Source: an uncultured Methanosarcinales archaeon
GTDB lineage: Archaea > Nanobdellota > Nanobdellia > Woesearchaeales > CAYVYK01
Length of the DNA: 64,000 nt
Direction: 5' to 3'
NCBI GenBank assembly: GCA_964455675.1
Contig: CAYVYK010000010.1
Span: 1 to 64,000, forward strand
In this document: piece after piece, positions 15,331-42,480 of the stretch
Layout of the letters: every line of letters starts with the position of its first letter
Numbering within the stretch: position 1 is the first letter of the stretch
The notes under the pieces: model-generated
What the model saw: only the letters and a program-made list of their open reading frames with translations
Told to the model about the DNA's origin: nothing
The model's database searches: none
Program-made: the position numbers and the translations under genes

Positions 15331-15407
15331 ACCCCGGTTGCTACCATTTTGTACGGAATTCAACCCAAACCCCAAGGTAGAGTGATACCAAGCTACACTA
15401 CGGCCCC
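15312..15407 (-). tRNA. tRNA-Pro(GGG) with 23-nt intron at 37/38 (intron 15347-15369)
   Basis: GGGGCCG/CGGCCCC acceptor stem; CTACC-TT-GGG-G[intron]T-GGTAG anticodon arm; GTTCAAATC T-loop. Confidence 0.9.
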
Positions 15408-21016: not shown

Positions 21017-23298
21017 GGTTTCACCTTGTGTGTTTTATAGACGATTGAGAGTATTGCTGGAACGATAAGAACACATGAGAAGAACGTGAACATCATACCC
21101 AGCGTGAGCGTTAGTCCGAGCCGTTTTGTTGCAAGGAGCGATGCAAGTGTCAGGGCAAGAAACCCGATCATGGTGGTTATCGTGCTGAGGAAAAGTGACT
21201 CACCGATTGTGGTGATCGTGCGCCGTAGCGCTTCGTTGGGCTTCATTCCTTCCTTGATGCTTCGCTCGGTACTGTGCATGATGTGGATGCTGTAGTCGAT
21301 TCCTGCGCCCATCAGGATTGCAAGCATTCCTGTGGTAAGGACAGTGAATGGAAGGTTAACATAGCCCATGGTTCCGATTGTCCACGCGATCGCGAAGAAT
21401 ATGGGGACGAATGCAAGCAGTCCCCGAACGATGGATCGGAAGAACAATGATGCAATGATGAAAACGAGTGCGAATCCAAGGAGCGTCGTGAGCATCATGC
21501 TGTCATTGATTGTCTTGTCAAGTTCAATGTCTTCCGCAAATCCTCCCTGAGGGATGATCGTAACACCGGTTGGGAGCCGTATCCCCTCGATCTCGCCAAG
21601 CACCTCATAATATTGCTCTCGATCAGTGAACGTGTTGCTTCGTAACGCGACGAGCATGATACTGTAGTCTCTGTTGTACATTTGTTTCGTTTCAGGATGT
21701 TCGGCCATGATCCGCTGTACTTGCTCGAACGTTTGGGGTATCCTTCCTTCATTAATATTCTTGATAGTGTCGGCGGGGCTATCGACAGAGTCGATGTATT
21801 TCAGCCGTTCAAGTGTCGCATCAATGTCCGCGACTGATTGGAGGACTCTTGGGTCTCGAAGGTCAGTGACTGCCTGCTCACCTGATTCTGTATTCTTGTC
21901 AATCATGACAAGGAAGTTTTGTGAATCCACACCGCCAAAATTGTATCCTACTTTGTCGAGTGATTCCCAAACGGGATCATTCTTGGGAAGCCAGTTGTCG
22001 TTGCTCGTGTCCATTCGTACAAGGCCTAGTCCAGGGATTGCAATTACAGTGAGGGCAATAACGGTAACAAGGACGTGATAAGGCCTGCGGGTAATGAGAA
22101 CCGCAAGCCAAGTGAGTACCCGTTTGAGCATCTGATTGCTGCGTGTCTTTTGTTCTCCTCTGATAGTAAAGATCGCCTCGTCAAGTCTTGAGTATACAAG
22201 CTTGCGCTGGAGCACAAGGATCGCAGGAAGCACAAGGATGCTCGTGATAAAGGCATAAGTTATACCTAAAGCGAGGACGATGCCTTGTGTGACCGATAGA
22301 GGGCTTCCTCCAGCGGTCATAGCAAGAAACCCCGCGACTGTCGTCAGGAATGATGCGAAGAGCGCAGACCCCACTGCGACGACAGTGTAATGCGTCGGAT
22401 TCCTTTCGCCTCTCCTGACTGCGTGGTTGTATCCGTGCGTCATATGGATGGCGTAGTCGACTCCAAGGCCTACCATCATTGCTCCGACGCTTGCAATCAT
22501 CATGGTGATCCTTATGCCAAGGAGGCTCATCGTCCCCGCAAGCCAGATAAGGACGAGCACCACGGGGAGTACAGATACGATACCTATGCGGACTGAACGG
22601 AATGAGATGGAAAGGACAATAAGGACGAAAAACAGTGCGATGCCGATCGTTGAGATATTGTCGTTGATCAGGAGGTTCATGATTCGGTTGAGGAGTGTGG
22701 GAAGTCCCGTGAGTGTTGTCTTCATGCCGTTGATCTTTGGTGCATTAATGATGCGTTCGTTGATGGCATCCTCAAGGTTCTCGAGCGCGCCGGGTTGAGT
22801 TTCAACGTTCACCGTAACGATCATGTTCAATAACCGATAGTCCTGGGAGACAAGGCTGCTCGTGTCGCCGAGAAGTGCGAGCATTTCCTTACTTTCCTCG
22901 AGTGTTTCGGGCAGCCGTCCATACCTCGCTCGCAGTACATCTGCAATGCAGAGGACATCGCTGACACTTGACTCGGCCCTGATGCTTCGTGCAAGATCCT
23001 CCGTTGCGGACAGTACGGATGGTTCTCGGATGTCGCGCACTGCGGTGACATCATTGATAGACTCATCGATCTCTATGAGGATAAACAGCCTGTCGGATTG
23101 GCCGAATTCATCGGATACGAGCCTACCGAGAATTCGAGTATCAGAATCTTCTCGGTAGAGTGTGTCAAAGTTGCTGTCCGTCCCGATTCGCACCGCGTAG
23201 TAAGAGAGAAATAAGGTGATTGTCAGCACTCCAAGAAGCCAGAGTACTGGGTATCGTTCTTGTAGGTCTGCTGCTTTTTCAAGTGAGCGCTTCAGCAC
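21013..23298 (-). CDS. MMPL/RND superfamily transporter
   Basis: Duplicated GLGVDYAIH / GAGIDYSIH motifs; likely GTG start at 23298 after GGGGTG RBS. Confidence 0.9.
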   Translation of the reverse strand: MLKRSLEKAADLQERYPVLWLLGVLTITLFLSYYAVRIGTDSNFDTLYREDSDTRILGRLVSDEFGQSDRLFILIEIDESINDVTAVRDIREPSVLSATEDLARSIRAESSVSDVLCIADVLRARYGRLPETLEESKEMLALLGDTSSLVSQDYRLLNMIVTVNVETQPGALENLEDAINERIINAPKINGMKTTLTGLPTLLNRIMNLLINDNISTIGIALFFVLIVLSISFRSVRIGIVSVLPVVLVLIWLAGTMSLLGIRITMMIASVGAMMVGLGVDYAIHMTHGYNHAVRRGERNPTHYTVVAVGSALFASFLTTVAGFLAMTAGGSPLSVTQGIVLALGITYAFITSILVLPAILVLQRKLVYSRLDEAIFTIRGEQKTRSNQMLKRVLTWLAVLITRRPYHVLVTVIALTVIAIPGLGLVRMDTSNDNWLPKNDPVWESLDKVGYNFGGVDSQNFLVMIDKNTESGEQAVTDLRDPRVLQSVADIDATLERLKYIDSVDSPADTIKNINEGRIPQTFEQVQRIMAEHPETKQMYNRDYSIMLVALRSNTFTDREQYYEVLGEIEGIRLPTGVTIIPQGGFAEDIELDKTINDSMMLTTLLGFALVFIIASLFFRSIVRGLLAFVPIFFAIAWTIGTMGYVNLPFTVLTTGMLAILMGAGIDYSIHIMHSTERSIKEGMKPNEALRRTITTIGESLFLSTITTMIGFLALTLASLLATKRLGLTLTLGMMFTFFSCVLIVPAILSIVYKTHKVKP

Positions 23299-23459
23299 GA
23301 GGTTACACCCCAAAAGATAGTCAAGAGAGCCCTCTTTTGATTTATAAATATTGTGTAAAGTGTTCAATAGGATTCAATAGAATTCACGTCATTAGGTTCA
23401 TCATGCCTGGAGGCAAGTATGCCGACGGATTTATAAGCAGGATTTCACGCCTCCTTGGT

Positions 23460-25574
23460 ATGTGCGGCATCGTTGGTTGTTTTAATACAAGTAATGCGGG
23501 CTCTAAGGTAAAGTGCGGACTTCTCAAACTCAGGAACCGCGGAATGGATGGTGCGGGATCGTGTGATGGAAAGAAAGTTCTGCATGCATCCTCTCCTGAG
23601 GATCTTGTGCCGCAGAAAGGAAGGAACTGTATCGGGCACGTGCTGCATGCAATAGTTGATCATGTGCCAAACCCAGTGCAAGGTAAGGGAGTCATTGTCG
23701 CAAACTGCGAGATCTATAACTGGAAGGAGCTGTCTATGAAGTGTGCATTGAACGTGAGAAATGATTCCGAGTTGCTCCTTCGCCTCTGTGACAAGGATCC
23801 TAAAGTGATCCCAAAGGTTCTTGACGAACTTGATGGTGTCTATGCTTTTGCGTATTGGCGTGGCAGCGAGATCTGGATCGCACGGGATATCATTGGCGTT
23901 AAGCCCTTGTGGTTCTCGCACGGTAAGGGTTTCTTTTTCGCTTCCGAGCGCAAAGTGCTAGAGGAGTGGGGGTGCAAGGCTATTGAAGAGCTCAATCCTC
24001 GCAGTGTCCTCATCTATAACATTCGCACAAACCGCATCAGCATCATCCGCCGTGAGTTCTTCGCTTCTCATCCTAATATTAAAGGGAGCGAGGAGGATAT
24101 AAGGAAGGAGCTTGGACAAAAGCTGAAATCAGCCGTCGAAAAGCGAGTTCCTGATCAGAAAACAGGGATTCTGTTTTCTGGCGGCGTGGATTCCGTGCTG
24201 CTCGCCCGGTTGCTTCAGCTCCTCGGAAAAGACGTGACGTGTTATACCGTAGCTGTTGAGGAGCCAGGACTCATGGAGTCTGAGGATCTGGTGTTTGCGA
24301 AAAAAGCAGCAGATGCGCTCGGACTTAAGCTTCGGACAATCCTCCTTTCGTTGAAGGATGTCGAGGCCGAGATTGCGGAAGTGATTCCCCTTATTGAAGA
24401 GACGAACGCGATTAAAGTTGGCGTTGCCGTGACGATCCATGCGGCCGCGAAGGTTGCGCATAAGGACGGCATCAAGGTACTCTTCAGTGGAACCGGTAGT
24501 GACGATCTGTTTGCGGGGTACGATCGCCACAAGCCATCCGCGACCTTGAATGATGATTGTCTTTCCGGAGTGCGCCGTCTGTACGAGCGCGATCTCTATC
24601 GAGATGACGTTGTCGTGATGAATTGTGCAGTCGAGCTCCGCCTTCCATATCTTGACAAATCGCTTGTTAGGTTCGCGCTTCGGATTCCGCCAGAGTTCAA
24701 GATTGCGAGCGATAACAAAATGATTCTCCGCAGGCTCGCTCAAGATTTGGGAGTCCCAGAGTTCATCGCGTTCAGAAAGAAGCGTGCCGCGCAGTACGGC
24801 AGCAGGGTTGACCAGGCACTCGAGAAGATCGCGAAAAGGAAGGGGTACAATAACAAGAATGCCCTCCTCGCAGGGTACCGGAAGAGGAAAATTAGTATTG
24901 CATCCCTGTGGAGCACGGGAAAGGATAGCGCTTTTGCCGCCTATTTGATGACGACGCGGAATTATGAAATCTCCTGTCTTGTCTCATTGCAGAGCGAAAA
25001 TCCGGATTCGTACATGTTTCACACTCCATCGATTGATCTGAGTAGACTGCACGCAAAAGCGATGGATGTTCCGCTCGTGCTGCAGAAGACGCTTGGGGAA
25101 GAGAATGACGAGCTCTGTGACCTCAAAAAGGCGTTGCAGACCGCAAAGAAAAAGTTCCATATCGAGGGCGTCGTGAATGGCGCGCTCTACTCCTCCTACC
25201 AACGCGACCGCATCGAAAAGATTTGTGACGAGCTTGGGCTTAAAGTGTATACTCCGCTCTGGCACATGCGCCAGGAGGAAGAACTCCGTCAGGTTCTGCT
25301 TCATAACTTCAGGATTATCTTCACAAAAGTTGCGGCGGAAGGTCTTGACGCTTCCTGGCTTGGCGTGCAAATAACAAGTGACCACGTGCAGCGGTTGATT
25401 GCTCTCAACAAAAAACTTGGCGTCAACGTTGCAGGTGAGGGCGGCGAGTTTGAGTCGCTAGTGCTTGATTGTCCTCTTTTCTCGCGCGAGATCATCATTC
25501 GTGATGCATCAATCAAGCAGGACGGCTTATGCGCAGTGCTGTCAATAGAAAGAACAACACTGAAAAAGAAGTGA
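23460..25574 (+). CDS. Asparagine synthetase B-like protein fused to diphthine-ammonia ligase (Dph6)
   Basis: MCGIVG Ntn start, NCEIYN, RDIIGVKPL, FSGGVDS; then WSTGKDS, DSYMFH, GEGGEFES. Confidence 0.9.
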   Translation: MCGIVGCFNTSNAGSKVKCGLLKLRNRGMDGAGSCDGKKVLHASSPEDLVPQKGRNCIGHVLHAIVDHVPNPVQGKGVIVANCEIYNWKELSMKCALNVRNDSELLLRLCDKDPKVIPKVLDELDGVYAFAYWRGSEIWIARDIIGVKPLWFSHGKGFFFASERKVLEEWGCKAIEELNPRSVLIYNIRTNRISIIRREFFASHPNIKGSEEDIRKELGQKLKSAVEKRVPDQKTGILFSGGVDSVLLARLLQLLGKDVTCYTVAVEEPGLMESEDLVFAKKAADALGLKLRTILLSLKDVEAEIAEVIPLIEETNAIKVGVAVTIHAAAKVAHKDGIKVLFSGTGSDDLFAGYDRHKPSATLNDDCLSGVRRLYERDLYRDDVVVMNCAVELRLPYLDKSLVRFALRIPPEFKIASDNKMILRRLAQDLGVPEFIAFRKKRAAQYGSRVDQALEKIAKRKGYNNKNALLAGYRKRKISIASLWSTGKDSAFAAYLMTTRNYEISCLVSLQSENPDSYMFHTPSIDLSRLHAKAMDVPLVLQKTLGEENDELCDLKKALQTAKKKFHIEGVVNGALYSSYQRDRIEKICDELGLKVYTPLWHMRQEEELRQVLLHNFRIIFTKVAAEGLDASWLGVQITSDHVQRLIALNKKLGVNVAGEGGEFESLVLDCPLFSREIIIRDASIKQDGLCAVLSIERTTLKKK

Positions 25575-26001: not shown

Positions 26002-26110
26002 GGGATCACCGAAGGTGATGGGTGTTGAAGTTGCTTTTATAGTTTTGGTATGGAATGTTCTAAAGAGGCGTAAAGAAAATGGACTTAGGTTCAGAATGAT
26101 ATGCGAACAA

Positions 26111-26196
26111 TGCGAGGGAGGGGATTCGAACCCCCGAAGGCACTAAGCCACAGGATCTTAAGTCCTGCACGTTTGACCGGACTTCGCTACCCTCGC
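26111..26196 (-). tRNA. tRNA-Leu(TAA)
   Basis: GCGAGGG/CCCTCGC acceptor; CAGGA-CT-TAA-GA-TCCTG; long variable arm; GTTCGAATC. Confidence 0.95.
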
Positions 26197-26277
26197 ATAG
26201 AGAGTAGATTCGCTTGCGTCGTTTTAAATTCTTCCATTTTCTGCGTGGACTCAAGATGAAGCGATCGTGAGGATGTG

Positions 26278-26958: not shown

Positions 26959-28083
26959 TCACATTCCCCGAAGTGTCTCCATGAACACCTGCTTGTTATG
27001 AGCCGCAGTGGTTGTTGGTCTTCCAAGGTCCTTCCTCGCTCCGCCCTTGACAAGAATCTCGAGAAGCGCTGGCCCCTCTGTTGCACAGAGCCGCGCGATT
27101 GCGGCCTTGAGTTCCTCAGGCGTTGCGACTTTTTCGGCGTGCTGGTACTGGCAAGCGATCGCGATTGCAGGTATGTCCATGTCATACGCTGGTGTTGGCT
27201 GCCCTCCAACACTCTCGTGCGATCCATTGTTGAAGATGATGTGCCGAAGATTCTTCGGACTTGCGGCGCCGATTACTGCAAGTGATCCCATGTGCATGAT
27301 GAGCGCCCCATCACCGTCGAGGCAGTAGATGTTTGCGTCGCTTTTTTGTAGCGCAATCCCAAGCGCGATGCTGGACGCGTGTCCCATGGACCCGACCGTG
27401 AGGAAATCCTGGCCGTGACCCTGCCCCTCATGTTCGCGGTACTCAAAGAGTTCTCGGGAGAGTTTGCCGGTTGTTGATACAATGATTGCATTCCCTCCGA
27501 TGCCTTCGAGTGCAATTCCAAGGGCTTGCTCGCGCGTCATTTCATAGTCGCTCGTTTTCTTGGAGTGTGAATACGGCTCAAAGGTATCGGCCCGTACAAC
27601 AATCGCCGCAGGTGCGCCGCGTTGCCGTGCGGCCTGACACATCGCATCAATGGTAGCCTTGGCTTCTGGCATGCTTTGTGGCAGTACTTCGTAGGGTATA
27701 CCGAGCGTATCGAGGAGCGATAGTGTTACTTTTCCCATCTTGACATGCTGGGGCTCGTCTTTCTTTCCAGGCTCCCCGCGCCATCCGATGAGGAGGACAA
27801 CAGGTATTCCATAGACGTCAGGATCCGCAAATGATGTGAGCGGATTGACCGCGTTTCCCTCTCCTGAATTCTGCATGTAGACACATCCCGGATTTCCAGT
27901 GGCAAGATAATGGCCTCCGGCTAGTGCGATCGCGTTGCCCTCGTTTGCGGTGATGATATGGTTTAGCCCCATGTTCTGCTGAAGGTACGAACATGCTTCT
28001 TTGAGGAGCGAGTCTGGTACTCCTGCGTAGAACGATATGCCTTGCTTGCCGAGTGTTTCAAAAAATTCATTGCATGGGATCAT
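26959..28083 (-). CDS. aepY: Phosphonopyruvate decarboxylase
   Basis: GVPDSLL, MQNSG.GN, DEPQH, GSMGH, DGDG. Confidence 0.95.
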   Translation of the reverse strand: MIPCNEFFETLGKQGISFYAGVPDSLLKEACSYLQQNMGLNHIITANEGNAIALAGGHYLATGNPGCVYMQNSGEGNAVNPLTSFADPDVYGIPVVLLIGWRGEPGKKDEPQHVKMGKVTLSLLDTLGIPYEVLPQSMPEAKATIDAMCQAARQRGAPAAIVVRADTFEPYSHSKKTSDYEMTREQALGIALEGIGGNAIIVSTTGKLSRELFEYREHEGQGHGQDFLTVGSMGHASSIALGIALQKSDANIYCLDGDGALIMHMGSLAVIGAASPKNLRHIIFNNGSHESVGGQPTPAYDMDIPAIAIACQYQHAEKVATPEELKAAIARLCATEGPALLEILVKGGARKDLGRPTTTAAHNKQVFMETLRGM

Positions 28084-28088
28084 GGTTT

Positions 28089-29387
28089 TCACTCCTTGTT
28101 TGGTATCAGTGTTAGTATTTCCTTGATGGGCATGCATTGCTTGCTTGCCTCATGCGCTCTCTTGTGGCGGAGGATGTGCTCTGCCGTGCTCACCATTGCT
28201 GGATACGCGCTCCGGAGCATATGGTTCGCGTAGATGACGACGTTGACGCCGGCCGCCGCGAGTTCTTCTTCCGTAATGGTATCGTATGTTGATGGTACGA
28301 CGACGAGTGGCGTGAGATCATCCATCCTTCGGAATTCTCTGCAGAATTCCAGGACTTCTGTTGGTTCCTTCTCTTTGCTGTGGATCATGATGCCGTCAGC
28401 GCCCGCTCGAACATATGCGCGCGCCCGTATCAGTGCATCGTCCATTCCTGCCTTGAGGATGAGGCTTTCGATCCGGGCGATGATCATGAAGTCTGTTGTG
28501 ACACGCGCCTGCTTTCCCGCCCGAATCTTTTCTGCGAAGCTTTGGACGCTGTCCTGAGTCTGCGAAACTTCAGTTCCAAAGAGCGAGTTTCTTTTTGCTC
28601 CGACCTTGTCTTCGATAATGACCGCTGATACTCCAAGTCGTTCGAGTGTTCTGACCATGAAGCGGAAGTGCTCGGTAAGTCCTCCGTCATCTCCGTCAAC
28701 GATCATGGGTTTCGTCGTAATCTCAAAGATTTGATCAATGGTGTGGACGCGCGAACTGACGTCGACAGCTTTGGTGTCGGGTTTTCCTTTTGCGATCGAG
28801 TCCGTGAGGCTGCTGACCCACATGCCGTCAAATTCCTCGGTTTTTCCATCCTGGAAGAGCTTGGTCTTTTCAACGATAAGTCCGGTGAGCCCGTTGTGCA
28901 CTTCGAGTATACGTACGATCGGCTTGAGCTCAAGAAGCCTGCGAAGCTTCTTGATTCGTAGCTCAGCTGTTGTGCCCTGTTCAGTTATTTGATTGATGAG
29001 CGCTGTTGACGAAACGTCCTTGGTGTATTCTGGTTCGATGAGTTGTCCTCCCCACTCAGAGAGTGCCTGCACGACCCGCTCGCGCACTTTTTGCTGAACG
29101 CCAGCCCTCCAATCGGTTCCGTGTACGACATAATCAGGCTTGAGTTTGCGCAGGTTGTCGACGTAGTCGAGCGTATGCTGGGGTACGACAGTCTTTACTC
29201 CGACGAGGTTTTCCACGATTCTCTTGCGCTGTTCCCATGGGATGAGTGGTACTCGTTTGTATGACGCGATCGCTTCGTCGGTGAGAAGTCCTACGGTCAC
29301 CTCGCCGAGTTTTCGCGCTTCCTCCAGGATATTGACATGCCCGTGATGCACAATGTCCGCTGCCATTCCGACATACACCTTCTTCAT
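28089..29387 (-). CDS. pepM: Cytidylyltransferase-phosphoenolpyruvate mutase fusion
   Basis: N-terminal HHGH; PepM-diagnostic EDKxxxxxNS ([10 protein letters not shown]). Confidence 0.95.
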
Positions 29388-29917
29388 GGTTCTCCTCCTC
29401 CGATTACTCTCCTGATGATCTTGGAATTTGACAGTTTCTCATAATACGGGAATGTTTTTATCGTGCCGCCGATCTTTGAGATGAATGGCTTTCCGGGGAT
29501 CTTCTTCCAGTTTGAGCCGTACACGAGAATGATTTTTGCGTGCGGAAATGTCTGGTGAAGGTAGTGCAGGTTTTCTGTGGGATCAAGATGGTTTTGCGTA
29601 AGCACCATGTCCACGCAGTTCAGCGATGATACGACGGCGAGGCGCTCCTTGAGCCCTGCGACAGCGGGCATGCGGTAGCTTGTGATCGCCTCATCCGTGA
29701 GGACTCCGCAGGCGTGGAAGTCCCCAAGGGAATTTGCTTTCTGGAGCAGCTGAAGCTGTCCGTAGTTGAAGAGGTCGCCAGTTGTTGAAGAATAGACAAT
29801 CGTTTTTATCTTGCTTTTTTCAAGGTTTACCCAGTCCCCTTCCTGGATTCCAGATTCTTTTGGGACCGTAACGCAAAGCTGGCCATTGGACTTGTTTGCC
29901 CAGACGATTCGCTTCAT
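29384..29917 (-). CDS. AbrB-like domain fused to degenerate cytidylyltransferase domain
   Basis: [26 protein letters not shown] in place of Hx[12 protein letters not shown] as in the PepM N-terminus. Confidence 0.8.
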
Positions 29918-30142
29918 GTACTAGTATCACTAGTAGAGAATATTTAAACCTTTCTGCGTGTTCATGCTCATGCCTTCCGCCCTCGCGTAATGTGTTGCAT
30001 GCCTGTAGAGGGTGCTTGTGTGGTTAGTGTACAGATTTACATCCGATTTCGATCGAACGAACAGAGGAGAATGTGCGGGAATATGCGTTCGAAAACAGAT
30101 AATTTTATATGCAAATTGGGAGGTTATGCAGGTTGAACAGGG

Positions 30143-30784
30143 ATGGCAAAACAGTACAATGTGTTTCGGAAGTATCTCTATCAACCAATTGAGGGAGCAA
30201 TACTGCCGCTGCTCTACAAGACAAGGCTGACTGGAAACCAGATCACGTCATTTGGTCTTATCTGTGCAATTATTGGATCAGTGCTCATCGTGACGATGCA
30301 CCCAATATTACGGATTGTTGGTGTGCTCTTTCATCAGTTTGCCATTCTTGCCGACGGTCTTGATGGAGCGGTTGCCCGTTATCGGAAACAGGCGAGCGAG
30401 TTTGGTGGCTGGTGGGACAACCTCGCAGCGCGCATCTCAGAGTTCCTCTTCCTTGCTGCTGCATCCATTCATGCCTACTATCTGACAGGTAGACCAGTAT
30501 ATCTCATGCTCGGAATGGTCGTAATCTTCTGCAACACGATGATAAGTTCGATCAGTCAGCTCCGTGAGTATGTGGCGTTTGTCCCAAAGAAGCCTTTCAC
30601 GTCGTATGGAGGCATGCTCATCGGCCGAAGCTTCTTCACGTATGCGCTCTTGCCGCTTCTCCTGCTCCTTGGTCGCACAGATATTCTTCTTATTATCGGC
30701 ACGCCGTTCCTTTTCCTTGGGCTTTGCTTCCAGATTGCAAAGCACGTCCGTGCGTGGCAGCATGTTCATAAACGAAGGAGCTAA
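30143..30784 (+). CDS. CDP-alcohol phosphotransferase family protein
   Basis: NQIT; DGLDGAVAR..G..WDN (last Asp replaced by Ala). Confidence 0.9.
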   Translation: MAKQYNVFRKYLYQPIEGAILPLLYKTRLTGNQITSFGLICAIIGSVLIVTMHPILRIVGVLFHQFAILADGLDGAVARYRKQASEFGGWWDNLAARISEFLFLAAASIHAYYLTGRPVYLMLGMVVIFCNTMISSISQLREYVAFVPKKPFTSYGGMLIGRSFFTYALLPLLLLLGRTDILLIIGTPFLFLGLCFQIAKHVRAWQHVHKRRS

Positions 30785-30817
30785 CTTTATATACTTCGAT
30801 TTCCCGGCCATAACAGC

Positions 30818-31492
30818 ATGAAAAACCCTCTGAAAGGTGTCCCGAAACAGAATGATTCGTACATCGACAGATATCTCTATCGGCCTATCTCGATTCACAT
30901 CTCGGGCGTTCTCATGCAGCTAGGTATGACGCCGAATCAGGCGACCTCGCTGTCGCTTCTTTTTGCGATTGCCGCTGCGGCGTGCTATGCCGTCGGCGCA
31001 TACAAGTATCTTGTGATTGGTGCGATTCTCTTGACGATTAGTCACCTGTTTGACACTGCAGATGGCGAGATCGCGCGCGCGAAAAATATGAAGTCCGATT
31101 TTGGTGCGTGGTTTGATTCTGTCGCGGATCGATTATCCATATTCGTCCTGTTTTTTGGAGCAAGCTATGGTGTGTATCGAGCAACCGGGAGCGAATTGAC
31201 TTTTGCCGTGGGATTTCTTGCGGCAGGTACCCTTACGATTGTTGGCATGATCAGTTCCATGAAGAAATACTTGCCGTTCATGCAAGGCCACCATGAGGGG
31301 CAGTCAAAGTCCGGTTCGTATATAGGAATCGGTAGCATGACGTTGTTTGTAATGACGCTCGCGGCATTGTTGAATATTGTGATGTTCCTTGTGTGGTTCT
31401 ATGCTCTTCTTGGAACGGTGATGCTTCTCAAGCAGATCCATAGCCACTACGTTCGCGGTGTCATGATGCATGGCTCGAAAAAAACGAAGTAG
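30818..31492 (+). CDS. CDP-alcohol phosphotransferase family protein
   Basis: TPNQAT; DTADGEIAR..GAWFDSVADR, complete motif. Confidence 0.92.
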   Translation: MKNPLKGVPKQNDSYIDRYLYRPISIHISGVLMQLGMTPNQATSLSLLFAIAAAACYAVGAYKYLVIGAILLTISHLFDTADGEIARAKNMKSDFGAWFDSVADRLSIFVLFFGASYGVYRATGSELTFAVGFLAAGTLTIVGMISSMKKYLPFMQGHHEGQSKSGSYIGIGSMTLFVMTLAALLNIVMFLVWFYALLGTVMLLKQIHSHYVRGVMMHGSKKTK

Positions 31493-31531
31493 AATTCTCT
31501 CGAAGTAAGATTCATAATATGCGTGAGTGAT

Positions 31532-32529
31532 CTAATAGATGCTTTCGAGGATTGCGCGGATGATTGGCGGCGTGATAACGACCGGATTGTTTGCGATTCT
31601 CTGAGGATTGGAGCTTTCCTCAACTAAGAGTTCAAGATCATTCCTCGGAACGCCAAGTGCTGATAGTCTGCGTGGTAATTGCATCTGGTCCATCAGGTGC
31701 TCAAGGTATTCTTTCGCCTCAGTTGCGTTCGCGACATGAAGCAGTTCGANNNNNNNNNNNNNNNNNNNNNNNNNNNNNNNNNNNNNNNNNNNNNNNNNNN
31801 NNNNNNNNNNNNNNNNNNNNNNNNNNNNNNNNNNNNNNNNNNNNNNNNNATTAGTGTCGGATTCGTAACGGCTTGGAGAGCATTCGGAAGAAGGAGGGAC
31901 AAAGCTTGCGCCGCGTATGTTTGTGACACGCTTGTCGAGTTCACAGACCAATAGGACTCAATCGCCTGCGAGATTGCGTCGGCTGCTGTCGCGGCGGTAA
32001 TGGCAGGACTTAGTGACAAGGTAAGTTGCGGATCAAGGACGATCCACTGGGGAACCATGGAGGGGTGCTCCAGGCTGTACTTCGTTTCTCCCTTGTAGAC
32101 GACGGCAAATGGGGTGATTTCTGCCCCGCTTCCGGCAGTCGTGGGTATGAGGATTTTTGGTATCCGTGAACCTCTTGCCTTCTTCGAACCGAGAATGTAA
32201 TCATCAAGGGGTCCATCTTCAGAGGAAAGGAGAGTTCCTGCTTTTGCGGCGTCTAGGACGCTCCCGCCTCCAACCGCAATCACAAGGTCATATCCTCCTT
32301 TTCGGATGGTATCGGCGACCATGCGGACTTGGTCGAGCCTCAGCATGCTGTGAAATCCCTCGACCCGTTTCACATAGCAGTGCAGAAGCTGCGGTGAAAG
32401 AGCCTCCTGTGCTCCGCTCTGTTCATAGGATTTTCCGCCGGTGACAAGGAGGATGCGCTGCGCATGCGTCTCCTTGAGCGCGTTCGCAACGTTCTTGATG
32501 GATTCTGCTCCCTCATAGATCGTGACCAT
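31532..32529 (-). CDS. Iron-containing alcohol dehydrogenase, probable phosphonoacetaldehyde reductase (spans gap)
   Basis: GGGSVLDAAK, PTTAGSGAE, QAIESYWS, C-terminal RIANNP; cluster context. Confidence 0.85.
31750..31849. other. Assembly gap (100 N)
   Basis: Run of n. Confidence 1.
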
Positions 32530-32585
32530 AACAGTCTGAATCCTGCGTGAACATAAAAATCTTGTTGTGGTGATGTCCCGGGCAG

Positions 32586-33236
32586 TTAGTCTTTCTTGCG
32601 CTGTGGCTTATCATCAGAAAGGAGAGGGTAGTGCTTTGCGATTTGATACATCCACATGAGCATCCCAACGCTCGCAAAAAAAATGACTGCCCATGTGGAG
32701 AGTCCGAGAATCACGAGCACGGGAAGGAGGATAACGGTGAATGTTGACCTGCCGATGTAGGTGTGTTTTCCAAGTTGTGAAAAGGATGTACGCTTGGGGA
32801 GATATTCTTTGATCTGGCTGAGTGTGCCGACCATCGTGATATTGAACACGGCAAGCATCCCAAGGAGAAGATAGAGAGGCTCCGAGGTGGTAGTGTATGC
32901 GTTGTAGCTAACGCCAAACATGATGGCAAAATCGACGACTCGTTCGGCGACATTATCATACCATGCGCCAAATGCGGATTGCATCTTTTTTATTCTGGCA
33001 ACGTCGCCGTCCATCCAGTCGCACATGCGTGCGAGCTGGTACCAGAGGAGTATGCCGATGAGTCGGTATGGTGTGCTTCCTTGCGCAACAAATGCTCCCG
33101 CAAGGAGTCCGAAAAAGATGCCGACAGTCGATATCTGGTTCGGTGTGATGCGTGTTCGTGAGAGACGGAGAGCGAGTGGATCCGTGATATGGCGATAGAA
33201 GTAGTATCGCGCGATGTTCATCTGTGGTTTTCCCAT
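32586..33236 (-). CDS. CDP-alcohol phosphotransferase family protein
   Basis: TPNQIS; DWMDGDVAR..GAWYDNVAER. Confidence 0.9.
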   Translation of the reverse strand: MGKPQMNIARYYFYRHITDPLALRLSRTRITPNQISTVGIFFGLLAGAFVAQGSTPYRLIGILLWYQLARMCDWMDGDVARIKKMQSAFGAWYDNVAERVVDFAIMFGVSYNAYTTTSEPLYLLLGMLAVFNITMVGTLSQIKEYLPKRTSFSQLGKHTYIGRSTFTVILLPVLVILGLSTWAVIFFASVGMLMWMYQIAKHYPLLSDDKPQRKKD

Positions 33237-33240
33237 GGTG

Positions 33241-33912
33241 TCATACCTGGTAAAAGATGATCCGGTAAAACGCTAAGCGAGCAAGTGGAGTCCTTCCAGC
33301 AGCGTGTTCTGCCAACTGCACTACGGACGATACGACGGGAATGGCGTGGATGAGGCTTGCGGGTGTAACGATCCTGAGCCCCTCGTGATGATGGATCTTG
33401 TGTGGGAAGTAGCTTATGATATCATTCATCGTGTCTGCCCTTCGATAGACAGGTGTGCTGTGAATGGCGGCTCTCCAGCTGTAGGGGTTGTAAAACTCAA
33501 GGATGCACCATCCTCCTTTCTTGGTTACTCGTATGGCTTCATGGACTGCTTCACGGATATTTGGCACGTGCGGCAATGTCATGAATGAGTACACGGTATC
33601 AAACGTTCCGTTCTTGAAGGGAATGTGATCCGCTGAGGCTTTGACGACGGAAAGTCCTTTCCCGCGCGCGTATGCGAGCATACCGTCAGAAATATCAAGA
33701 CCTGTTGCGCTACGGGCGTATGTGCTGGTTCGTGCAAGGATGATGCCTGTGCCGCAGCCCACCTCAAGAATGTTCTTCCCGGTTATGTAGGGTTTGAGCA
33801 GATCGATTTTCGCCTTGTTGAAGTATGTGAAGGATGGATTTGTGCGGTCCTTGTCGTACCTTCTGCTGAAGGTATCATAGTACGATGGAATTTCTTGTTT
33901 CTCCTTTGTCAT
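33241..33912 (-). CDS. Class I SAM-dependent methyltransferase
   Basis: ILEVGCGTG, GLDISDGML, FDTV. Confidence 0.9.
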   Translation of the reverse strand: MTKEKQEIPSYYDTFSRRYDKDRTNPSFTYFNKAKIDLLKPYITGKNILEVGCGTGIILARTSTYARSATGLDISDGMLAYARGKGLSVVKASADHIPFKNGTFDTVYSFMTLPHVPNIREAVHEAIRVTKKGGWCILEFYNPYSWRAAIHSTPVYRRADTMNDIISYFPHKIHHHEGLRIVTPASLIHAIPVVSSVVQLAEHAAGRTPLARLAFYRIIFYQV

Positions 33913-33994: not shown

Positions 33995-35092
33995 ATGGAG
34001 AAACTGGTGAATCCAAGGAGGATGCTCATCATTTGCCTTTCAGGCATGGGAAATTTTCTCTTGTTCACTCCTGCCTTGAAGCATTATCGGGAATGCTACC
34101 CTAATGCAAGGATTGATCTGTGCGTGCGTTGGCAGTTCCTTGCAGACCTCTTGAAGGAAAACAAGCTGTACAATAATTGTTATATATTCGACGAGAAGAA
34201 GTATGACTGTCCTGGAAAGAAACTGCGGTTCATGTGGTTTCTTAGAAAAAATAGGTATGATACAACCATCTGCGTTTTTCCGACGAACCGCTGGCAGTAC
34301 AATGTCCTTGCGTATGCAACGGGAGCACGCCAGCGGTGTTCGTTTTCATACCCAAGGTCAAAGGGGTGCACCTTGAGTTTTCTGCAGAACAATCTGCTCG
34401 AGGCTGATGAAAGTCTGCATGATGTGGAGCAGAATGTCCGTCTGGCAGAGGAACTGACTGGAAAGGAAGTACAAAAACCGTATCGCATAACTACTCCGAT
34501 TCCAAAAAAGGATCTTCTCTGGGGAGAAAAATTTGTCTCTGGCTTGAAGCGGCCTCTTTTCGTGATCCACCCAAGTTTTGATCAAGCACAGTCCTACAAG
34601 GGTGGTTCGGCGCAGAGGATCTCGTTCTTTCTGGAATTGATGAAGCGCTTGCGCGAGAAATACCACGCTTCGATCATCCTGATTGGCGGCAAAAAGGAGG
34701 GTGATCAGATCAGGGAGATTCTGGATGCTTCGCATGGGAAGGAACATACGAAGCTTGCCGTGGGGCAATCCATCGGAGAAAGTGCAGGTATCATCAAGCA
34801 GGCAAACCTCCTGATTAATATTGACTCGGGCCTCGGTCACATTGCCTCCGTCACAAACACTCCGACGATAACGATCTACGGTCCCGCGATTCCAGGGAGG
34901 ACGAGAAGGTATAATGCAAATCAGCGGTTTATCCAGCATCGTCCGCAAAACGCCAAGGATTATCCGTATCCTTTCAAAAGCAGTAAGCAGGAACAGCCCT
35001 GTGATGCCGAAGCATGGTTCGCGGCAGTTTCAGTTAATGATGTCATCAAGGAAATTGATGATATGAAGAGGAAAGGTGACGTGGTGATATGA
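33995..35092 (+). CDS. GT9 (heptosyltransferase-like) glycosyltransferase
   Basis: GMGNFLLFTP, DSGLGHIA, TIYGP. Confidence 0.9.
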   Translation: MEKLVNPRRMLIICLSGMGNFLLFTPALKHYRECYPNARIDLCVRWQFLADLLKENKLYNNCYIFDEKKYDCPGKKLRFMWFLRKNRYDTTICVFPTNRWQYNVLAYATGARQRCSFSYPRSKGCTLSFLQNNLLEADESLHDVEQNVRLAEELTGKEVQKPYRITTPIPKKDLLWGEKFVSGLKRPLFVIHPSFDQAQSYKGGSAQRISFFLELMKRLREKYHASIILIGGKKEGDQIREILDASHGKEHTKLAVGQSIGESAGIIKQANLLINIDSGLGHIASVTNTPTITIYGPAIPGRTRRYNANQRFIQHRPQNAKDYPYPFKSSKQEQPCDAEAWFAAVSVNDVIKEIDDMKRKGDVVI

Positions 35093-36093
35093 GCGTTGAG
35101 TCACTTGTAGAGAGATTTCCTGGCAGGAAGGTATTGATCGTCGGAGACGCAATGCTTGACGTGTACGTCACAGGCAAGGTTGAGCGCATTTCACCTGAGG
35201 CTCCGGTTGTCGTGCTTCATGTGCAGGATAGGAGTTTTGTTCCAGGTGGCTGTACGAACGTAAGTCTCAACTGTTCAGCACTCGGAATGGACGCGCATAT
35301 CATTGCTGTTGTTGGAAATGATCAGAATGCAAAAGTGCTGCGTGACTTACTTGTAGCTCATCGCGTGGACGTGCAGGACCTCTTTATTGCCGGCGACCGC
35401 CCAACGATTACGAAGATGCGTATGATCGCGCAAGGCCAGCAGCTCATGCGGGTTGATGAGGAGGCGACGCATTTTGTTGACGAATCCACGGACCGGAAGA
35501 TACGTGCAGCCATTGAGAAAAGGATCCCTCTCGTAGATGCCGTGATTGTATCGGATTACGCGAAAGGCGCGTGTACCCCAGATTCAATGCGGGTTTTGAT
35601 AGACCTTGCAAGGAAGCATAATAAGCCGGTCATTGTTGATTCAAAGACGTCTATTCCCGAGATGTACCAGTCCTGTACGGTTATAACGCCAAACGAATTT
35701 GAGGCGATGAGAATGACAGGGATGCATCCCAAGGATGAAGAGGAATTTCTGCGCATGGGTGTGGATCTCCAGAAGCACCTGCACTCCGCAGTGCTGATCA
35801 CGAGAGGAGCGAAGGGAATGACGCTGTTTGAGGAAGGTAGAAAGCCTCATACCATGCCTACAAAGGCTGTGGAAGTGTATGATGTCACAGGGGCGGGTGA
35901 TACGGTGACGGCAGTGCTCTGTGCAAGCATCGCAGCGCAGGGTTCGCTTGTGGACGGAATGACGCTCGCGACGTATGCTGCAGGCATTGTCATTAGGCAG
36001 CTTGGGAGCGCGACAGTCTCCCGTGACGAATTGATTCATGCGGTGAGGAATGATGGACTGCAAGTCAAAGATCAAAACAAGGGAAGAGCTTAG
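35089..36093 (+). CDS. hldA: Heptose-7-phosphate kinase (RfaE domain I)
   Basis: GDAMLD, RISPEAPV, SDYAKG, DVTGAGDT. Confidence 0.92.
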   Translation: MSVESLVERFPGRKVLIVGDAMLDVYVTGKVERISPEAPVVVLHVQDRSFVPGGCTNVSLNCSALGMDAHIIAVVGNDQNAKVLRDLLVAHRVDVQDLFIAGDRPTITKMRMIAQGQQLMRVDEEATHFVDESTDRKIRAAIEKRIPLVDAVIVSDYAKGACTPDSMRVLIDLARKHNKPVIVDSKTSIPEMYQSCTVITPNEFEAMRMTGMHPKDEEEFLRMGVDLQKHLHSAVLITRGAKGMTLFEEGRKPHTMPTKAVEVYDVTGAGDTVTAVLCASIAAQGSLVDGMTLATYAAGIVIRQLGSATVSRDELIHAVRNDGLQVKDQNKGRA

Positions 36094-36535
36094 GAGGATT
36101 CTGCCAAAACACGGTGTTGTGTTTGCCAATGGCAGTTTTGACATCGTCCACGCTCGTCATGCCCTGTTTCTCGAGGAAGCAAAGCGTCTTGGTGATGTGC
36201 TTGTTGTTGGCGTGAATAGCGATAAGTCTGTCAAGGAATGGAAGAAGCACATCGGATACAAGGACTATGACAAGCGACCGATCATACCTGAGCGTTATCG
36301 ATCGATCATGGTCGCCGCAATAAAAGATGTTGATTACGTTGTCATATTCAACGAACCAACGCCGATCGAGCTTATCAAGTTCTTAAGGCCAGGTATATTT
36401 GTGAACGGCAGTGATTATGGTGCTGACTGTATCGAGAGGCCGATCGTACAAGAGTATGGTGGCGTCGTGAAGATCATCCACATCGATGCGGATATCTCGA
36501 CGTCTGCGATCATGCAAAAGATTAAGGAAGCGTAG
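36050..36535 (+). CDS. hldC: Heptose-1-phosphate adenylyltransferase (RfaE domain II)
   Basis: NGSFDIVHARH, GVNSDKSV, ISTSAI. Confidence 0.85.
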   Translation: MMDCKSKIKTREELRRILPKHGVVFANGSFDIVHARHALFLEEAKRLGDVLVVGVNSDKSVKEWKKHIGYKDYDKRPIIPERYRSIMVAAIKDVDYVVIFNEPTPIELIKFLRPGIFVNGSDYGADCIERPIVQEYGGVVKIIHIDADISTSAIMQKIKEA

Positions 36536-36548
36536 AAGGGCGATCAAA

Positions 36549-37277
36549 ATGATGGGTACAAACTTGGGAGTCACGCACGCATTTATTCTTGCAGGGGGAA
36601 TTGGGTCGCGACTCCGCCCCTTGACGAATTCAATTCCCAAGGTTCTCATTCCTGTCGCGGGCAAGCCGATTATTGTGCATAATATCGAGCTCCTGAGAAA
36701 GTTTGGCGTGACGAATATCGTGATTGGGACTGGGTACTTAGGTGAACAGATCGATGAGTATTTTGCAGAGCACCCGATGCGCGGGACCACGATTGTGTGC
36801 AGCCAAGAGAAAGTATTTCTTGGGACTGCTGGAGCGTTAAGGCTTGCAGAAGATCACATTCAGGGCAAGACTTTCTTTATGATGAATGGTGATGAGCTCA
36901 AAGACATTGACATGAGGAAGGTACACGCCGTGCATGTGAAGAACAAGGTTCTTGCGACTCTTGCGTTGACGAGGGTTGAAGACCCCTCAAAGTTTGGGGT
37001 TGTCGCCCAGGATGGGGATCTGATCACAAAATTCGTCGAGAAGCCTAAGGAGAATGCGCCCTCGAATCTGATTAACGCAGGGTTCTACATTCTGGAGAGG
37101 GACGTCCTCTCTATGATTCCAAAAGGGAAGAATGTGAGTATTGAGAAAGAGGTGTTTCCAGTGATTGCACAGCGTGGAATGCTTGCCGGCTGCGAGTTTT
37201 TTGGCGAGTGGCTTCCTACCGATGATTTTGAGCGTCTCGAGTTCGCGCGTAAGAACTGGCACGGCATAAGTTTTTAA
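36549..37277 (+). CDS. Sugar-1-phosphate nucleotidyltransferase
   Basis: ILAGGIGSRLRPLT..PK, GTAGAL, FVEKP. Confidence 0.9.
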   Translation: MMGTNLGVTHAFILAGGIGSRLRPLTNSIPKVLIPVAGKPIIVHNIELLRKFGVTNIVIGTGYLGEQIDEYFAEHPMRGTTIVCSQEKVFLGTAGALRLAEDHIQGKTFFMMNGDELKDIDMRKVHAVHVKNKVLATLALTRVEDPSKFGVVAQDGDLITKFVEKPKENAPSNLINAGFYILERDVLSMIPKGKNVSIEKEVFPVIAQRGMLAGCEFFGEWLPTDDFERLEFARKNWHGISF

Positions 37278-41553: not shown

Positions 41554-42480
41554 GTGTTGAAGATTAAACGCAAAGTAATCCAGATTGCCGAATCCACGCA
41601 GCTTATTAGCCTACCAAGGAAGTGGGCGAAAGCAAATAACATCAACCGTGGCGATGAGCTTGATGTGGTTATTGATGGTAATAAGCTGACGATTAATACT
41701 GATAAGGAGAAAGTGAGAAGGGTATCCTCCGTCCGCGCTGAGGATTATCCAAATATCATGCCTAGGGTAGTATCCGCGTTCTACCGTCTGGGTTATGATG
41801 AGGTTGAGATTGAGTACAACAATCCAAGTGTTGTAGCTCCTCTTCTCGAGATTTTAACAGAGTTTTTTCCAGGGTATGAGGTTCTAAGCCAGTCCGAGAA
41901 GCGGATGGTCATTAAGGATATCCAGTATGATGTGGAAAATGAGTTTGACAATGTCCTTCGGAGGCTTCTCATGGTTACTGTCTCCATGGGGGAAAATATC
42001 CTTGAGTGCATGAAGAATTTCAATGAGACACGTGTATTGAATGTGCTATCCATGGAGAACACGAACAATCGACTCGCAAATTACTGCATAAGGAATGTTA
42101 TCAATCGAGGTCAGAAGGAGCACACAAGAATGCCTTTCTATGTCCTCTTCGTGTGGGAGCTTGAGAAGATCGGTGATGAGTTTAAGTACATCGGCCAGTA
42201 CATGATTCGTGAGGACGTAAAGAGCCTTAAGATATCTCCTGCGACGATTACCCTCTTTGAGCAGCTCGTAGAAATGTTCAAGATGCTCGTCGATGCCTAC
42301 TACCGGATGGATCCTGACAAGCTTGATAAGATTCATATGAAGAGGAAAGAGATTATTGAGGAAGGATTGCGTTTGCTTGAGTCATCTCAAAAGAAGGACC
42401 GAAAGATCGTGCATAACATTATTGTGACTTCTCAGAAGCTAGCGAATATGTCGGGCGTATATATGGGGATCGCATTCTGA
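41554..42480 (+). CDS. AbrB-PhoU family regulator
   Basis: RKVIQIAESTQLISLPRKW, GYDE, LEKIGD. Confidence 0.9.
   Translation: MLKIKRKVIQIAESTQLISLPRKWAKANNINRGDELDVVIDGNKLTINTDKEKVRRVSSVRAEDYPNIMPRVVSAFYRLGYDEVEIEYNNPSVVAPLLEILTEFFPGYEVLSQSEKRMVIKDIQYDVENEFDNVLRRLLMVTVSMGENILECMKNFNETRVLNVLSMENTNNRLANYCIRNVINRGQKEHTRMPFYVLFVWELEKIGDEFKYIGQYMIREDVKSLKISPATITLFEQLVEMFKMLVDAYYRMDPDKLDKIHMKRKEIIEEGLRLLESSQKKDRKIVHNIIVTSQKLANMSGVYMGIAF

Follow-up and report, generated by a model that had tools for sequence, protein, structure and literature searches.

A probable phosphonate surface-tailoring locus with AF2299-like CDP-alcohol phosphotransferases and a probable regulator in an uncultured Woesearchaeales archaeon

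On what would an uncultured archaeon place a phosphonate of its own making? This question is raised by positions 26959-33912 of a 64,000-nucleotide stretch of DNA (positions 1 to 64,000 of contig CAYVYK010000010.1, assembly GCA_964455675.1; hereafter, the window), in which an initial annotation had recognized a phosphoenolpyruvate (PEP) mutase fused to a cytidylyltransferase (CT-PepM), a phosphonopyruvate decarboxylase (Ppd), an iron-dependent alcohol dehydrogenase (Fe-ADH), three CDP-alcohol phosphotransferases (CDP-APs), and a methyltransferase. Using open reading frame (ORF) calling and family scans we recovered every one of these genes, along with two features inside the interval that had been overlooked: a further cytidylyltransferase-fold gene, CT2, and a palindromic box at its promoter. 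The cluster is real, intact, and of a known type, probably serving phosphonate surface tailoring. At slightly better than even confidence, we infer that its CDP-APs, which resemble AF2299 of Archaeoglobus fulgidus, put 2-hydroxyethylphosphonate (HEP) on a surface-bound glycan precursor under the control of a regulator encoded in the same cassette.

The host genome comprises 1.72 Mb in 25 contigs and is 99.0% complete. The DPANN affiliation proposed from the letters alone agrees with its order, Woesearchaeales, in which three further genomes (G138, G359, and G389) have proteins named Ca. Woesearchaeota.

The phosphonate core and its distribution

Both parts of the fused CT-PepM were identified (PF01467 and PF13714), and the EDKxxxxxNS motif is present at residues 259-268. 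The protein scored 407.8 bits against TIGR02320 (cut-off 319.55) and remained below the cut-offs of competing models for phosphonopyruvate hydrolase (TIGR02321, 141 bits) and methylisocitrate lyase (prpB, 93 bits). Its cytidylyltransferase domain carries HHGH at residue 14, and the closest sequence match in the PDB is the cytidylyltransferase (CyTase) domain of Fom1 (5X3D, E 3.4e-52), an enzyme reported to make CMP-HEP (PMC6697681); fusions of this kind are frequent, accounting for 23.6% of Ppm proteins in the same source. Ppd likewise exceeded its family cut-off (TIGR03297, 483.7 versus 312.5 bits); its ORF is open up to 28137, and the start was set at residue 19, matching the starts of relatives. 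Enolase, and with it a supply of PEP, is encoded in the genome.

The Fe-ADH gene, present as annotated, crosses a gap of 100 N, and a chimeric join at this gap (31750) had been named as a possible objection to the cluster. Run X2, from another sample of the study, supplied a 2366-nt contig that spans the gap and connects 31749 with 31850 through 242 letters, giving a true gap length of 242 nt and an Fe-ADH that is in frame (1140 nt, 379 amino acids). With the gap bridged in this way, and with each half matching single Fe-ADHs in alignments to relatives, the chimera objection fails. For the visible half the best NCBIfam model was TIGR03405, below cut-off, and the conserved His motifs lie inside the N gap. 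The same Fe-ADH protein family occurs in 42 of the 57 distinct pepM loci of relatives (window excluded; labels from scanned protein clusters).

Given the family cut-offs reached and the likeness of the fused domain to the Fom1 CyTase, the proposal of HEP synthesis followed by CMP activation is well supported, and the locus very likely makes CMP-HEP from PEP. In this predicted pathway PepM, Ppd, and Fe-ADH, judged by family membership, would convert PEP to HEP, and the fused domain, judged by its closeness to a characterised enzyme, would convert HEP to CMP-HEP.

Counting this genome, pepM exceeded the cut-off in 5 of the 61 relatives, in 20 of the order's 401 genomes, and in 12 of the 301 genomes from the class. 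Order-level tallies here and below (pepM, CDP-AP, profile, and box) include unpublished genomes (G393, G292, G196, G194, G127, G192, G370, G318, and G279), the first three of which also give housekeeping rows of the CDP-AP trees; no conclusion depends on unpublished genomes alone. With pepM in about 5% of genomes, as in bacteria (~5%; PMC8942020), its mere presence is only moderately surprising, and the phosphonate pathway is not exceptional within Woesearchaeales. The earlier suggestion of a surprisingly costly carbon-phosphorus investment is weak for the same reason, and also in view of a 1.72-Mb genome with enolase and four flippase loci; by pathway arithmetic each unit costs one PEP, one NAD(P)H, and one CTP.

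The named top homologs of CT-PepM are from Woese- and Nanoarchaeota, and AepX proteins of Bacteroidota are 55-64% identical. In a FastTree phylogeny of 60 mutase domains the window enzyme is sister to that of genome G077 and nested in Woese- and Pacearchaeota sequences mixing orders; as the tree holds just three bacterial rows, neither a donor nor a single origin can be claimed. The patchy distribution among relatives fits the view of phosphonate genes as horizontally moved surface-variation traits, as described for marine microbes (PMC8931226). A literature search on pepM or phosphonate with DPANN or Woesearchaeota, which did not cover the 12 archaeal ppm neighbourhoods in the supplements of PMC8942020, found no description of phosphonate synthesis in Woesearchaeota, and in the accessible portion of PMC11066067 DPANN appear just for phosphate transport.

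CDP-alcohol phosphotransferases and the probable acceptor

All three annotated CDP-APs are present (PF01066) and are the only PF01066 genes of the genome; the full D1xxD2GxxAR...GxxxD3xxxD4 signature, of class I type, is kept in one of them, enzyme 2, with D4 replaced in enzymes 1 and 3 (Table 1). D4 is described as the catalytic base, and D4N nearly abolishes the activity of PIPS (PMC4634129). Enzyme 1, with Ala at this position, is possibly inactive or non-canonical. D4 is Asp in all 37 rows from housekeeping loci versus 5 of 27 pepM-linked rows, where His (9) and Gly (8) are found. The notion that three CDP-APs are special in themselves was rejected, since CDP-APs of any kind occur in 236 of the 401 genomes of the order, with up to 8 copies.

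A profile was built from 15 sequences, of which three are the window enzymes, four are homologs from databases, and eight are pepM-linked enzymes; its best match in the PDB was AF2299 (E 5e-39), followed by DIPPS (5e-17), PIPS (2e-15), and CPT1 (3e-11). The predicted model of enzyme 2 (mean predicted local distance difference test score, pLDDT, 94) has a juxtamembrane helix (JM1) and six helices, and structural ranking placed AF2299 at the top (Z 24.1, root-mean-square deviation 2.5, 205 aligned), ahead of DIPPS (20.2), PIPS (18.5), CPT1 (14.6), and PgsA (11.1). At 213-224 amino acids, the three enzymes are without the 3-4 extra C-terminal transmembrane (TM) helices of CPT1/CEPT1-type lipid-acceptor enzymes, and all three fall far below the cut-offs of the AIPS, ASS, PgsA, and PssA NCBIfam models. 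According to PMC4634129, six-TM CDP-APs take soluble-type acceptors, lipid-acceptor enzymes have 3-4 more helices, and lipids are not processed by Af2299, which takes CDP-glycerol.

Phylogenetic trees, from which 8 of 89 rows were dropped because a loose motif had caught them in CarS loci as fragments or second domains, split module-linked CDP-APs from CarS-linked housekeeping ones with 2 label changes versus 26 for shuffled labels. The same split was recovered in a thinned tree (16 of 34 housekeeping rows, the two longest omitted) at 99 in the Shimodaira-Hasegawa-like approximate likelihood ratio test (SH-aLRT). Enzyme 3 is the sister paralog of enzyme 1, and PepM-, PhnD-, GlpT-, and phosphoramidate-linked CDP-APs are interleaved. 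A metagenome scan with the closest CDP-AP homolog (P0002) found no relative.

The initial annotation had left lipid, possibly scavenged, and surface glycan as alternative acceptors. Of these the glycan is favoured; the lipid is weak given the absence of matches for lipid backbone genes, the six-helix AF2299-like enzymes, and the glycan loci described below. Searched for in the 99%-complete genome, geranylgeranylglyceryl phosphate synthase (GGGPS), CdsA, PAP2, and CarS were not found, CarS also with a profile from three Woesearchaeales CarS, and a self-made lipid backbone is thereby disfavoured. The single UbiA is nearest to decaprenyl-phosphate phosphoribosyltransferases, below cut-off, and a polyprenyl-synthase match is weak; with the backbone genes not found and UbiA placed in this way, we could trace no path by which a CDP-lipid donor or a free-diether acceptor would be obtained. 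Searches of the genome for the sulfatase family and for LicD returned nothing, leaving the CDP-APs as the sole candidate transferases found. Present are AglB and four flippases, at least three of them in loci with neighbouring glycosyltransferase (GT) genes; a paralog of the GT9 gene lies in a flippase locus on contig C11.

In relatives, CDP-APs occur in 26 of the 57 pepM loci, 24 of which also hold flippase, GT, or AglB genes, and CarS is absent from all 57, in a sample that was enriched for CT2 loci and whose kin are not independent, which takes weight from these counts as support for a glycan acceptor. Sulfatase-like or LicD genes were found in 3 of the 26 CDP-AP loci versus 14 of the 31 others (Fisher p 0.008). 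At E<=1e-25 the AF2299-like profile matched 62 of 401 genomes, including 13 of the 22 that are pepM-positive; 7 of these are positive by construction, and the remainder (6 of 15) compares with 49 of 379 pepM-negative genomes (p 0.01). A sample of 20 loci from the 49 pepM-free genomes was picked by score and contig size; all 20 held flippase, GT, or AglB genes, and a Gct- or LicC-like nucleotidyltransferase often adjoined the CDP-AP. A Sphingomonas homolog sits in a capsule locus. We infer that several terminal transferases can stand in for one another in placing CMP- or CDP-activated groups on surface glycans, the CDP-AP among them.

In 15 of 21 pepM-positive relatives CarS is held elsewhere in the genome, several times beside a separate housekeeping CDP-AP, and the 22 pepM-positive genomes hold no convincing full-length GGGPS (2 partial matches over cut-off). 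This combination suggests head-group remodelling of scavenged archaetidic acid, by a module that is absent from this genome. More widely, CarS lies beside housekeeping CDP-APs in many Woesearchaeales, frequently in tandem or as a fusion (loci L053-L073).

Under the glycan reading, enzyme 2 would act at the cytoplasmic face, moving HEP to a hydroxyl of a polyprenyl-linked oligosaccharide or soluble precursor with release of CMP; enzymes 1 and 3, with their changed D4, may be partners or act on other positions; and the flippases and AglB encoded elsewhere would export the decorated glycan. Several points weigh against it. We know of no CDP-AP that modifies a glycan, neither a flippase nor AglB adjoins the cluster, and two PlsC-like acyltransferases are encoded in the genome. 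The subfamily is not phosphonate-specific, as the 49 pepM-free genomes make plain, and an approximately unbiased (AU) test on the thinned row set does not reject a placement of the window's three enzymes within the housekeeping clade (p 0.31). A prokaryotic CDP-choline:diacylglycerol pathway, in Treponema denticola, has a CDP-AP as its enzyme, so that the six-helix rule may have exceptions. Lastly, the function of AF2299 is itself disputed, PMC8633023 assigning it a probable part in phosphatidylinositol-phosphate synthesis.

One of the other readings is a phosphonolipid made by host-lipid remodelling, in which a CDP-AP would move HEP to scavenged archaeol or diacylglycerol in a Kennedy-type reaction and so provide a parasite with a phospholipase-resistant head group. 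This reading, which we consider unlikely, draws on the prokaryotic joining of CDP-choline to diacylglycerol (PMC6805115), the dependence of DPANN on host lipids (PMC11035636), and the prediction that bacterial clusters with pepM and CDP-OH genes make phosphonolipids (PMC8942020), as well as on the status of the three enzymes as the genome's only PF01066 proteins, the two PlsC-like genes, and a Parabacteroides homolog flanked by genes for a cytidylyltransferase and for a lyso-lipid acyltransferase. It is countered by the six-helix fold, by the failure to find PAP2, CarS, and CdsA in the genome, by the glycan genes and missing CarS of the pepM loci, and by those relatives that keep CarS, and several times a second CDP-AP, elsewhere. 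If the matches to AF2299 and DIPPS, both described as not processing lipids (PMC4634129), are taken at face value, the enzymes could instead join two soluble substrates, HEP with a polyol, a sugar phosphate, or a second HEP, to give a product, either building block or compatible solute, whose attachment to the surface comes later or never; three paralogs and a methyltransferase could build such a small, multi-substituted molecule. We hold this to be rather improbable, for the steady glycan-locus context and the alternation with sulfatase-like and LicD transferases better fit direct glycan decoration, and the sulfatase-family and LicD searches of the genome brought up no additional transferase that would handle such a block.

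A last possibility is that CMP-HEP is not the donor at all: the enzymes may use another CDP-donor, or the HEP hydroxyl may accept a host-derived CDP-lipid, with the link to pepM reflecting shared variable glycan islands. The occurrence of the subfamily in pepM-free genomes, the interleaving of differently linked members in the tree, and the loss of Asp at D4 in most pepM-linked members would all be accommodated, yet the enrichment in pepM genomes outside the profile set and the interleaving of the window's CDP-AP genes with the ADH gene speak for a functional connection. A blastp search of the genome with the fused cytidylyltransferase domain, in which other nucleotidyltransferase families were unsurveyed, returned CT2, an HldE domain, and the query itself. 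On balance we regard an unrelated donor as very improbable, and decoration of a glycan with HEP remains the reading that we favour.

CT2 and the ACTAGT box

The CT2 protein (177 amino acids) consists of a conserved 38-residue N-domain and a cytidylyltransferase fold, and the best Foldseek match of its model is the Fom1 CyTase. Its homologs number 356 at E<=1e-10, and the genome collection contains 64 CT2 loci, for the most part under Woese-, Pace-, or Nanoarchaeota titles. ACTAGT-N3-ACTAGT, allowing at most one mismatch, is present in 55 of 57 distinct regions upstream of CT2, as against 4 of 893 among the remaining ORFs of these loci, and the window copy is the sole such site in the 1.72-Mb genome (chance expectation in the window, 0.02). 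In an unselected sample of 190 genomes, the exact box lies directly upstream in 11 of the 12 genomes with full CT2 (G032 has none exact) and occurs anywhere in 10 of the remaining 178; genome G079, whose CT2 copy is without the N-domain, has no box. The box lies just downstream of a TATA-like element, and a TATA-like match occurs no more than 25 nt upstream in 50 of 55 box-bearing relatives. By archaeal promoter geometry, it lies over the expected transcription start.

The 64 loci fall into several cassette types: 35 hold pepM, 12 hold PhnCDE without pepM, 8 are of a phosphoramidate type with a PRK05849 kinase and a gamma-glutamyl-CDP-amidate hydrolase-like gene (which we take to be a Campylobacter-type phosphoramidate pathway), 7 hold a GlpT-like major facilitator superfamily (MFS) gene and a Gct-like cytidylyltransferase without pepM, and 2 hold none of these. 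CDP-APs accompany all four types, in 32 of the 64 loci.

On its simplest reading, which we consider probable, CT2 is a self-repressor with a nucleotide-sensing domain: the predicted protein would bind at its own promoter, on the palindrome, and use its cytidylyltransferase fold to sense CTP or a CMP-adduct. NadR-type enzyme-fold sensors offer a comparison class. With AbrB/SpoVT/MazE swapped-hairpin regulators CT2 shares a short N-domain with a TIP...GD pattern, a gene placed first in its unit, and a palindrome over the promoter. This likeness is weak, however: one homolog matched PF04014 at E 0.027, below cut-off, with no match for the window copy, AbrB structures in the PDB gave E 0.3-0.9, and hhalign gave 9.5%. 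In the window copy the HXGH motif reads NYGQ. That the AbrB-like assignment falls below every cut-off weighs against a regulator, as does the retention of HYGH in 82 of 117 aligned homologs, and an enzymatic role of CT2 thus stays conceivable. Nothing usable for the N-domain came from the ESM Atlas, and our literature search found no paper with such an AbrB-like/cytidylyltransferase fusion regulator.

Some further observations were made on these loci. In L086 (10540-14749), L111 (10549-15356), and 12 further CT2 loci, PhnD, PhnC, and PhnE of Woesearchaeota exceed NCBIfam cut-offs beside nucleotidyltransferases; 12 of these 14 are without pepM in the locus, an apparent case of phosphonate salvage for surface decoration. 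CT2 is fused to the ~790-residue PRK05849 kinase, followed by the gamma-glutamyl-CDP-amidate hydrolase-like gene, in three DPANN loci (L126:10001-13660, L130, and L133). A headgroup cassette in L123 (10546-12842) contains a fusion of cytidylyltransferase-like and citryl-CoA-lyase-like domains followed by a second such domain, and L047 (17148-19528) resembles it in arrangement (the scan was made for L123). The window also encodes two PhoU-domain proteins at 41554-42480 (+) and 59736-60644 (-), of which the first has an AbrB/MazE N-domain that is clear; the genome encodes seven related proteins.

Gene order, comparison with known systems, and implications

The interval and its flank form oppositely oriented transcription-direction units rather than a single operon (Table 1): CT2-pepM-ppd (-), CDP1-CDP2 (+), MT-CDP3-ADH (-), and, just beyond the interval first annotated, a unit of GT9, HldE kinase, HldE adenylyltransferase, and NTP transferase genes at 33995-37277 (+).

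Table 1. Features of the phosphonate locus and its flank (window coordinates).
Feature	Position	Strand	Basis or remark
Ppd/AepY phosphonopyruvate decarboxylase	26959-28083	-	TIGR03297
CT-PepM, Fom1/AepX-type fusion: N-terminal cytidylyltransferase (HHGH) and PEP mutase	28089-29387	-	TIGR02320, PF01467 and PF13714
CT2: weakly AbrB/SpoVT-like N-domain and cytidylyltransferase-fold domain	29384-29917	-	homologs, Foldseek
Palindromic box ACTAGT-N3-ACTAGT, probable operator	29920-29934	.	between TATA-like element and CT2 start codon
TATA-like element TTTAAATA of CT2-pepM-ppd unit	29941-29948	-	sequence inspection
AF2299-like CDP-alcohol phosphotransferase 1	30143-30784	+	PF01066; D4 = Ala
AF2299-like CDP-alcohol phosphotransferase 2	30818-31492	+	PF01066; complete signature
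Fe-ADH (PhpC/FomC-like phosphonoacetaldehyde reductase candidate)	31532-32529	-	PF00465 and PF25137 on either gap side
AF2299-like CDP-alcohol phosphotransferase 3	32586-33236	-	PF01066; D4 = Glu
Class I SAM-dependent methyltransferase	33241-33912	-	PF08241
GT9 (heptosyltransferase-like), divergent from methyltransferase gene	33995-35092	+	PF01075
Split HldE: sugar-7-phosphate kinase domain and adenylyltransferase domain	35089-36535	+	TIGR02198, TIGR02199
Sugar-1-phosphate nucleotidyltransferase	36486-37277	+	PF00483

The fourth unit resembles an ADP-heptose pathway in an archaeon, and similar GT9/HldE genes recur at CT2 or CDP-AP loci (L109, L128, L142, and L164). Both parts of the split HldE score below cut-off (TIGR02198, 338 bits versus 345; TIGR02199, 149 bits versus 181.5), and GmhA gave no match in the genome with a single query, so heptose synthesis is not established as complete. 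The methyltransferase has no informative solved relative at E<=1e-9. A tRNA-Leu(TAA) gene at 26110-26197 (-), one gene past the ppd end of the cluster, is a possible integration site, but GC content gave no island signal.

The early fosfomycin pathway of Streptomyces wedmorensis resembles the window in its CyTase-PepM fusion architecture and the adjacent Ppd and Fe-ADH, which we take to be Fom2 and FomC. In the fosfomycin cluster this core is accompanied by a cobalamin radical-SAM methyltransferase and an epoxidase, neither of which is among the window neighbours (radical-SAM-like proteins are encoded elsewhere in the genome); the window has instead three CDP-APs, the GT9/HldE unit, and the probable regulator. 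Loci of Bacteroidota with aepX, aepY, and a phosphonoacetaldehyde reductase share the three-gene core, with fusion identities of 64% in Fulvitalea and 55% in Segatella, the latter in a polysaccharide locus; they differ in having LicD or TagF-like candidates for the terminal transferase and no CDP-APs, and neither a CT2 gene nor the box is annotated there. The 'Burkholderiales_CDP-OH' (Group 1 phosphonolipid) clusters combine, like the window, pepM and ppd with cytidylyltransferases and phospholipid-type genes, and PMC8942020 gives their product as predicted and never isolated. They use a 2-aminoethylphosphonate (AEP) transaminase, an alpha-ketoglutarate oxygenase, and PntC, whereas the window has Fe-ADH/HEP and a PF01467 domain, with no detectable lipid backbone genes in the genome; no AEP transaminase or alpha-ketoglutarate oxygenase was found among the 24 scanned ORFs of 19754-39987, the rest of the genome being unsearched for them. 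AF2299 (PDB 4O6M, 4O6N, and 4Q7C), the best profile and structure match, shares the six helices and has a soluble CDP donor reported; it carries a fused N-terminal soluble domain that the window enzymes lack, D4 varies in the Woesearchaeales members, and its own acceptor is disputed in the literature.

Surface-related genes of other kinds were also encountered. Some CDP-AP glycan loci (L039:18128-19454, L149, L152, and L160) contain multiple genes for B12-binding radical-SAM proteins along with genes for sulfate activation (sat, cysC), and radical-SAM genes are present in 24 of the 57 pepM loci. Elsewhere in the genome of this archaeon, a bacterial-looking signal peptidase II adjoins a PlsC-like acyltransferase (L145:1012-2216), and a flippase locus contains a bacterial-looking Bac_transf initiating transferase, an exosortase, and a WecG-like GT (L201:125-6124). 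Within the window, an asparagine-synthase/glutamine-amidotransferase domain is fused to a diphthamide synthase (Dph6-like) domain at 23220-25574 (+); a tRNA-like element with a four-base anticodon called by ARAGORN at 15311-15407 (-) overlaps the end of a GT4 gene and is probably spurious; and three long ORFs (934, 1143, and 732 amino acids) at 50671-58842 (-), strongly AT-skewed and unmatched in Pfam at 1e-5, are possibly surface proteins.

The steps that follow CMP-phosphonate formation in surface tailoring have been called enigmatic (PMC6697681), and a large group of CDP-OH clusters is without a known product according to PMC8942020. Not found described were AF2299-like enzymes that are probably glycan phosphonate transferases, and the probable regulator-operator pair common to make-or-import cassettes. 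The locus offers a small, complete test set, in which a Fom1-like donor pathway accompanies three candidate transferases, the genome having yielded neither a rival transferase nor a route to lipid backbones. In uncultured DPANN, CT2 as probable repressor would form with its 15-bp box a rare regulator-operator pair. Should the glycan reading be true, it would add a reaction class for CDP-alcohol phosphotransferases and point to a function for AF2299. As a tentative generalization, which we think possible and less than probable, Woese- and Pacearchaeota may 'make or steal' their surface decoration, joining a nucleotide-sensing repressor and the ACTAGT-N3-ACTAGT box to AF2299-type CDP-APs as glycan phospho-transferases and to swappable cassettes; these, as tentatively, may comprise HEP synthesis, phosphonate import (PhnCDE), glycerol phosphate import (GlpT-like), and phosphoramidate synthesis. 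If this were true, AF2299-type CDP-APs would be a new glycan phospho-transferase class and the orphan AF2299 would gain a kind of function, and phosphonate synthesis, phosphonate salvage, and phosphoramidate cassettes would be alternatives for surface variation in a host-dependent cell.

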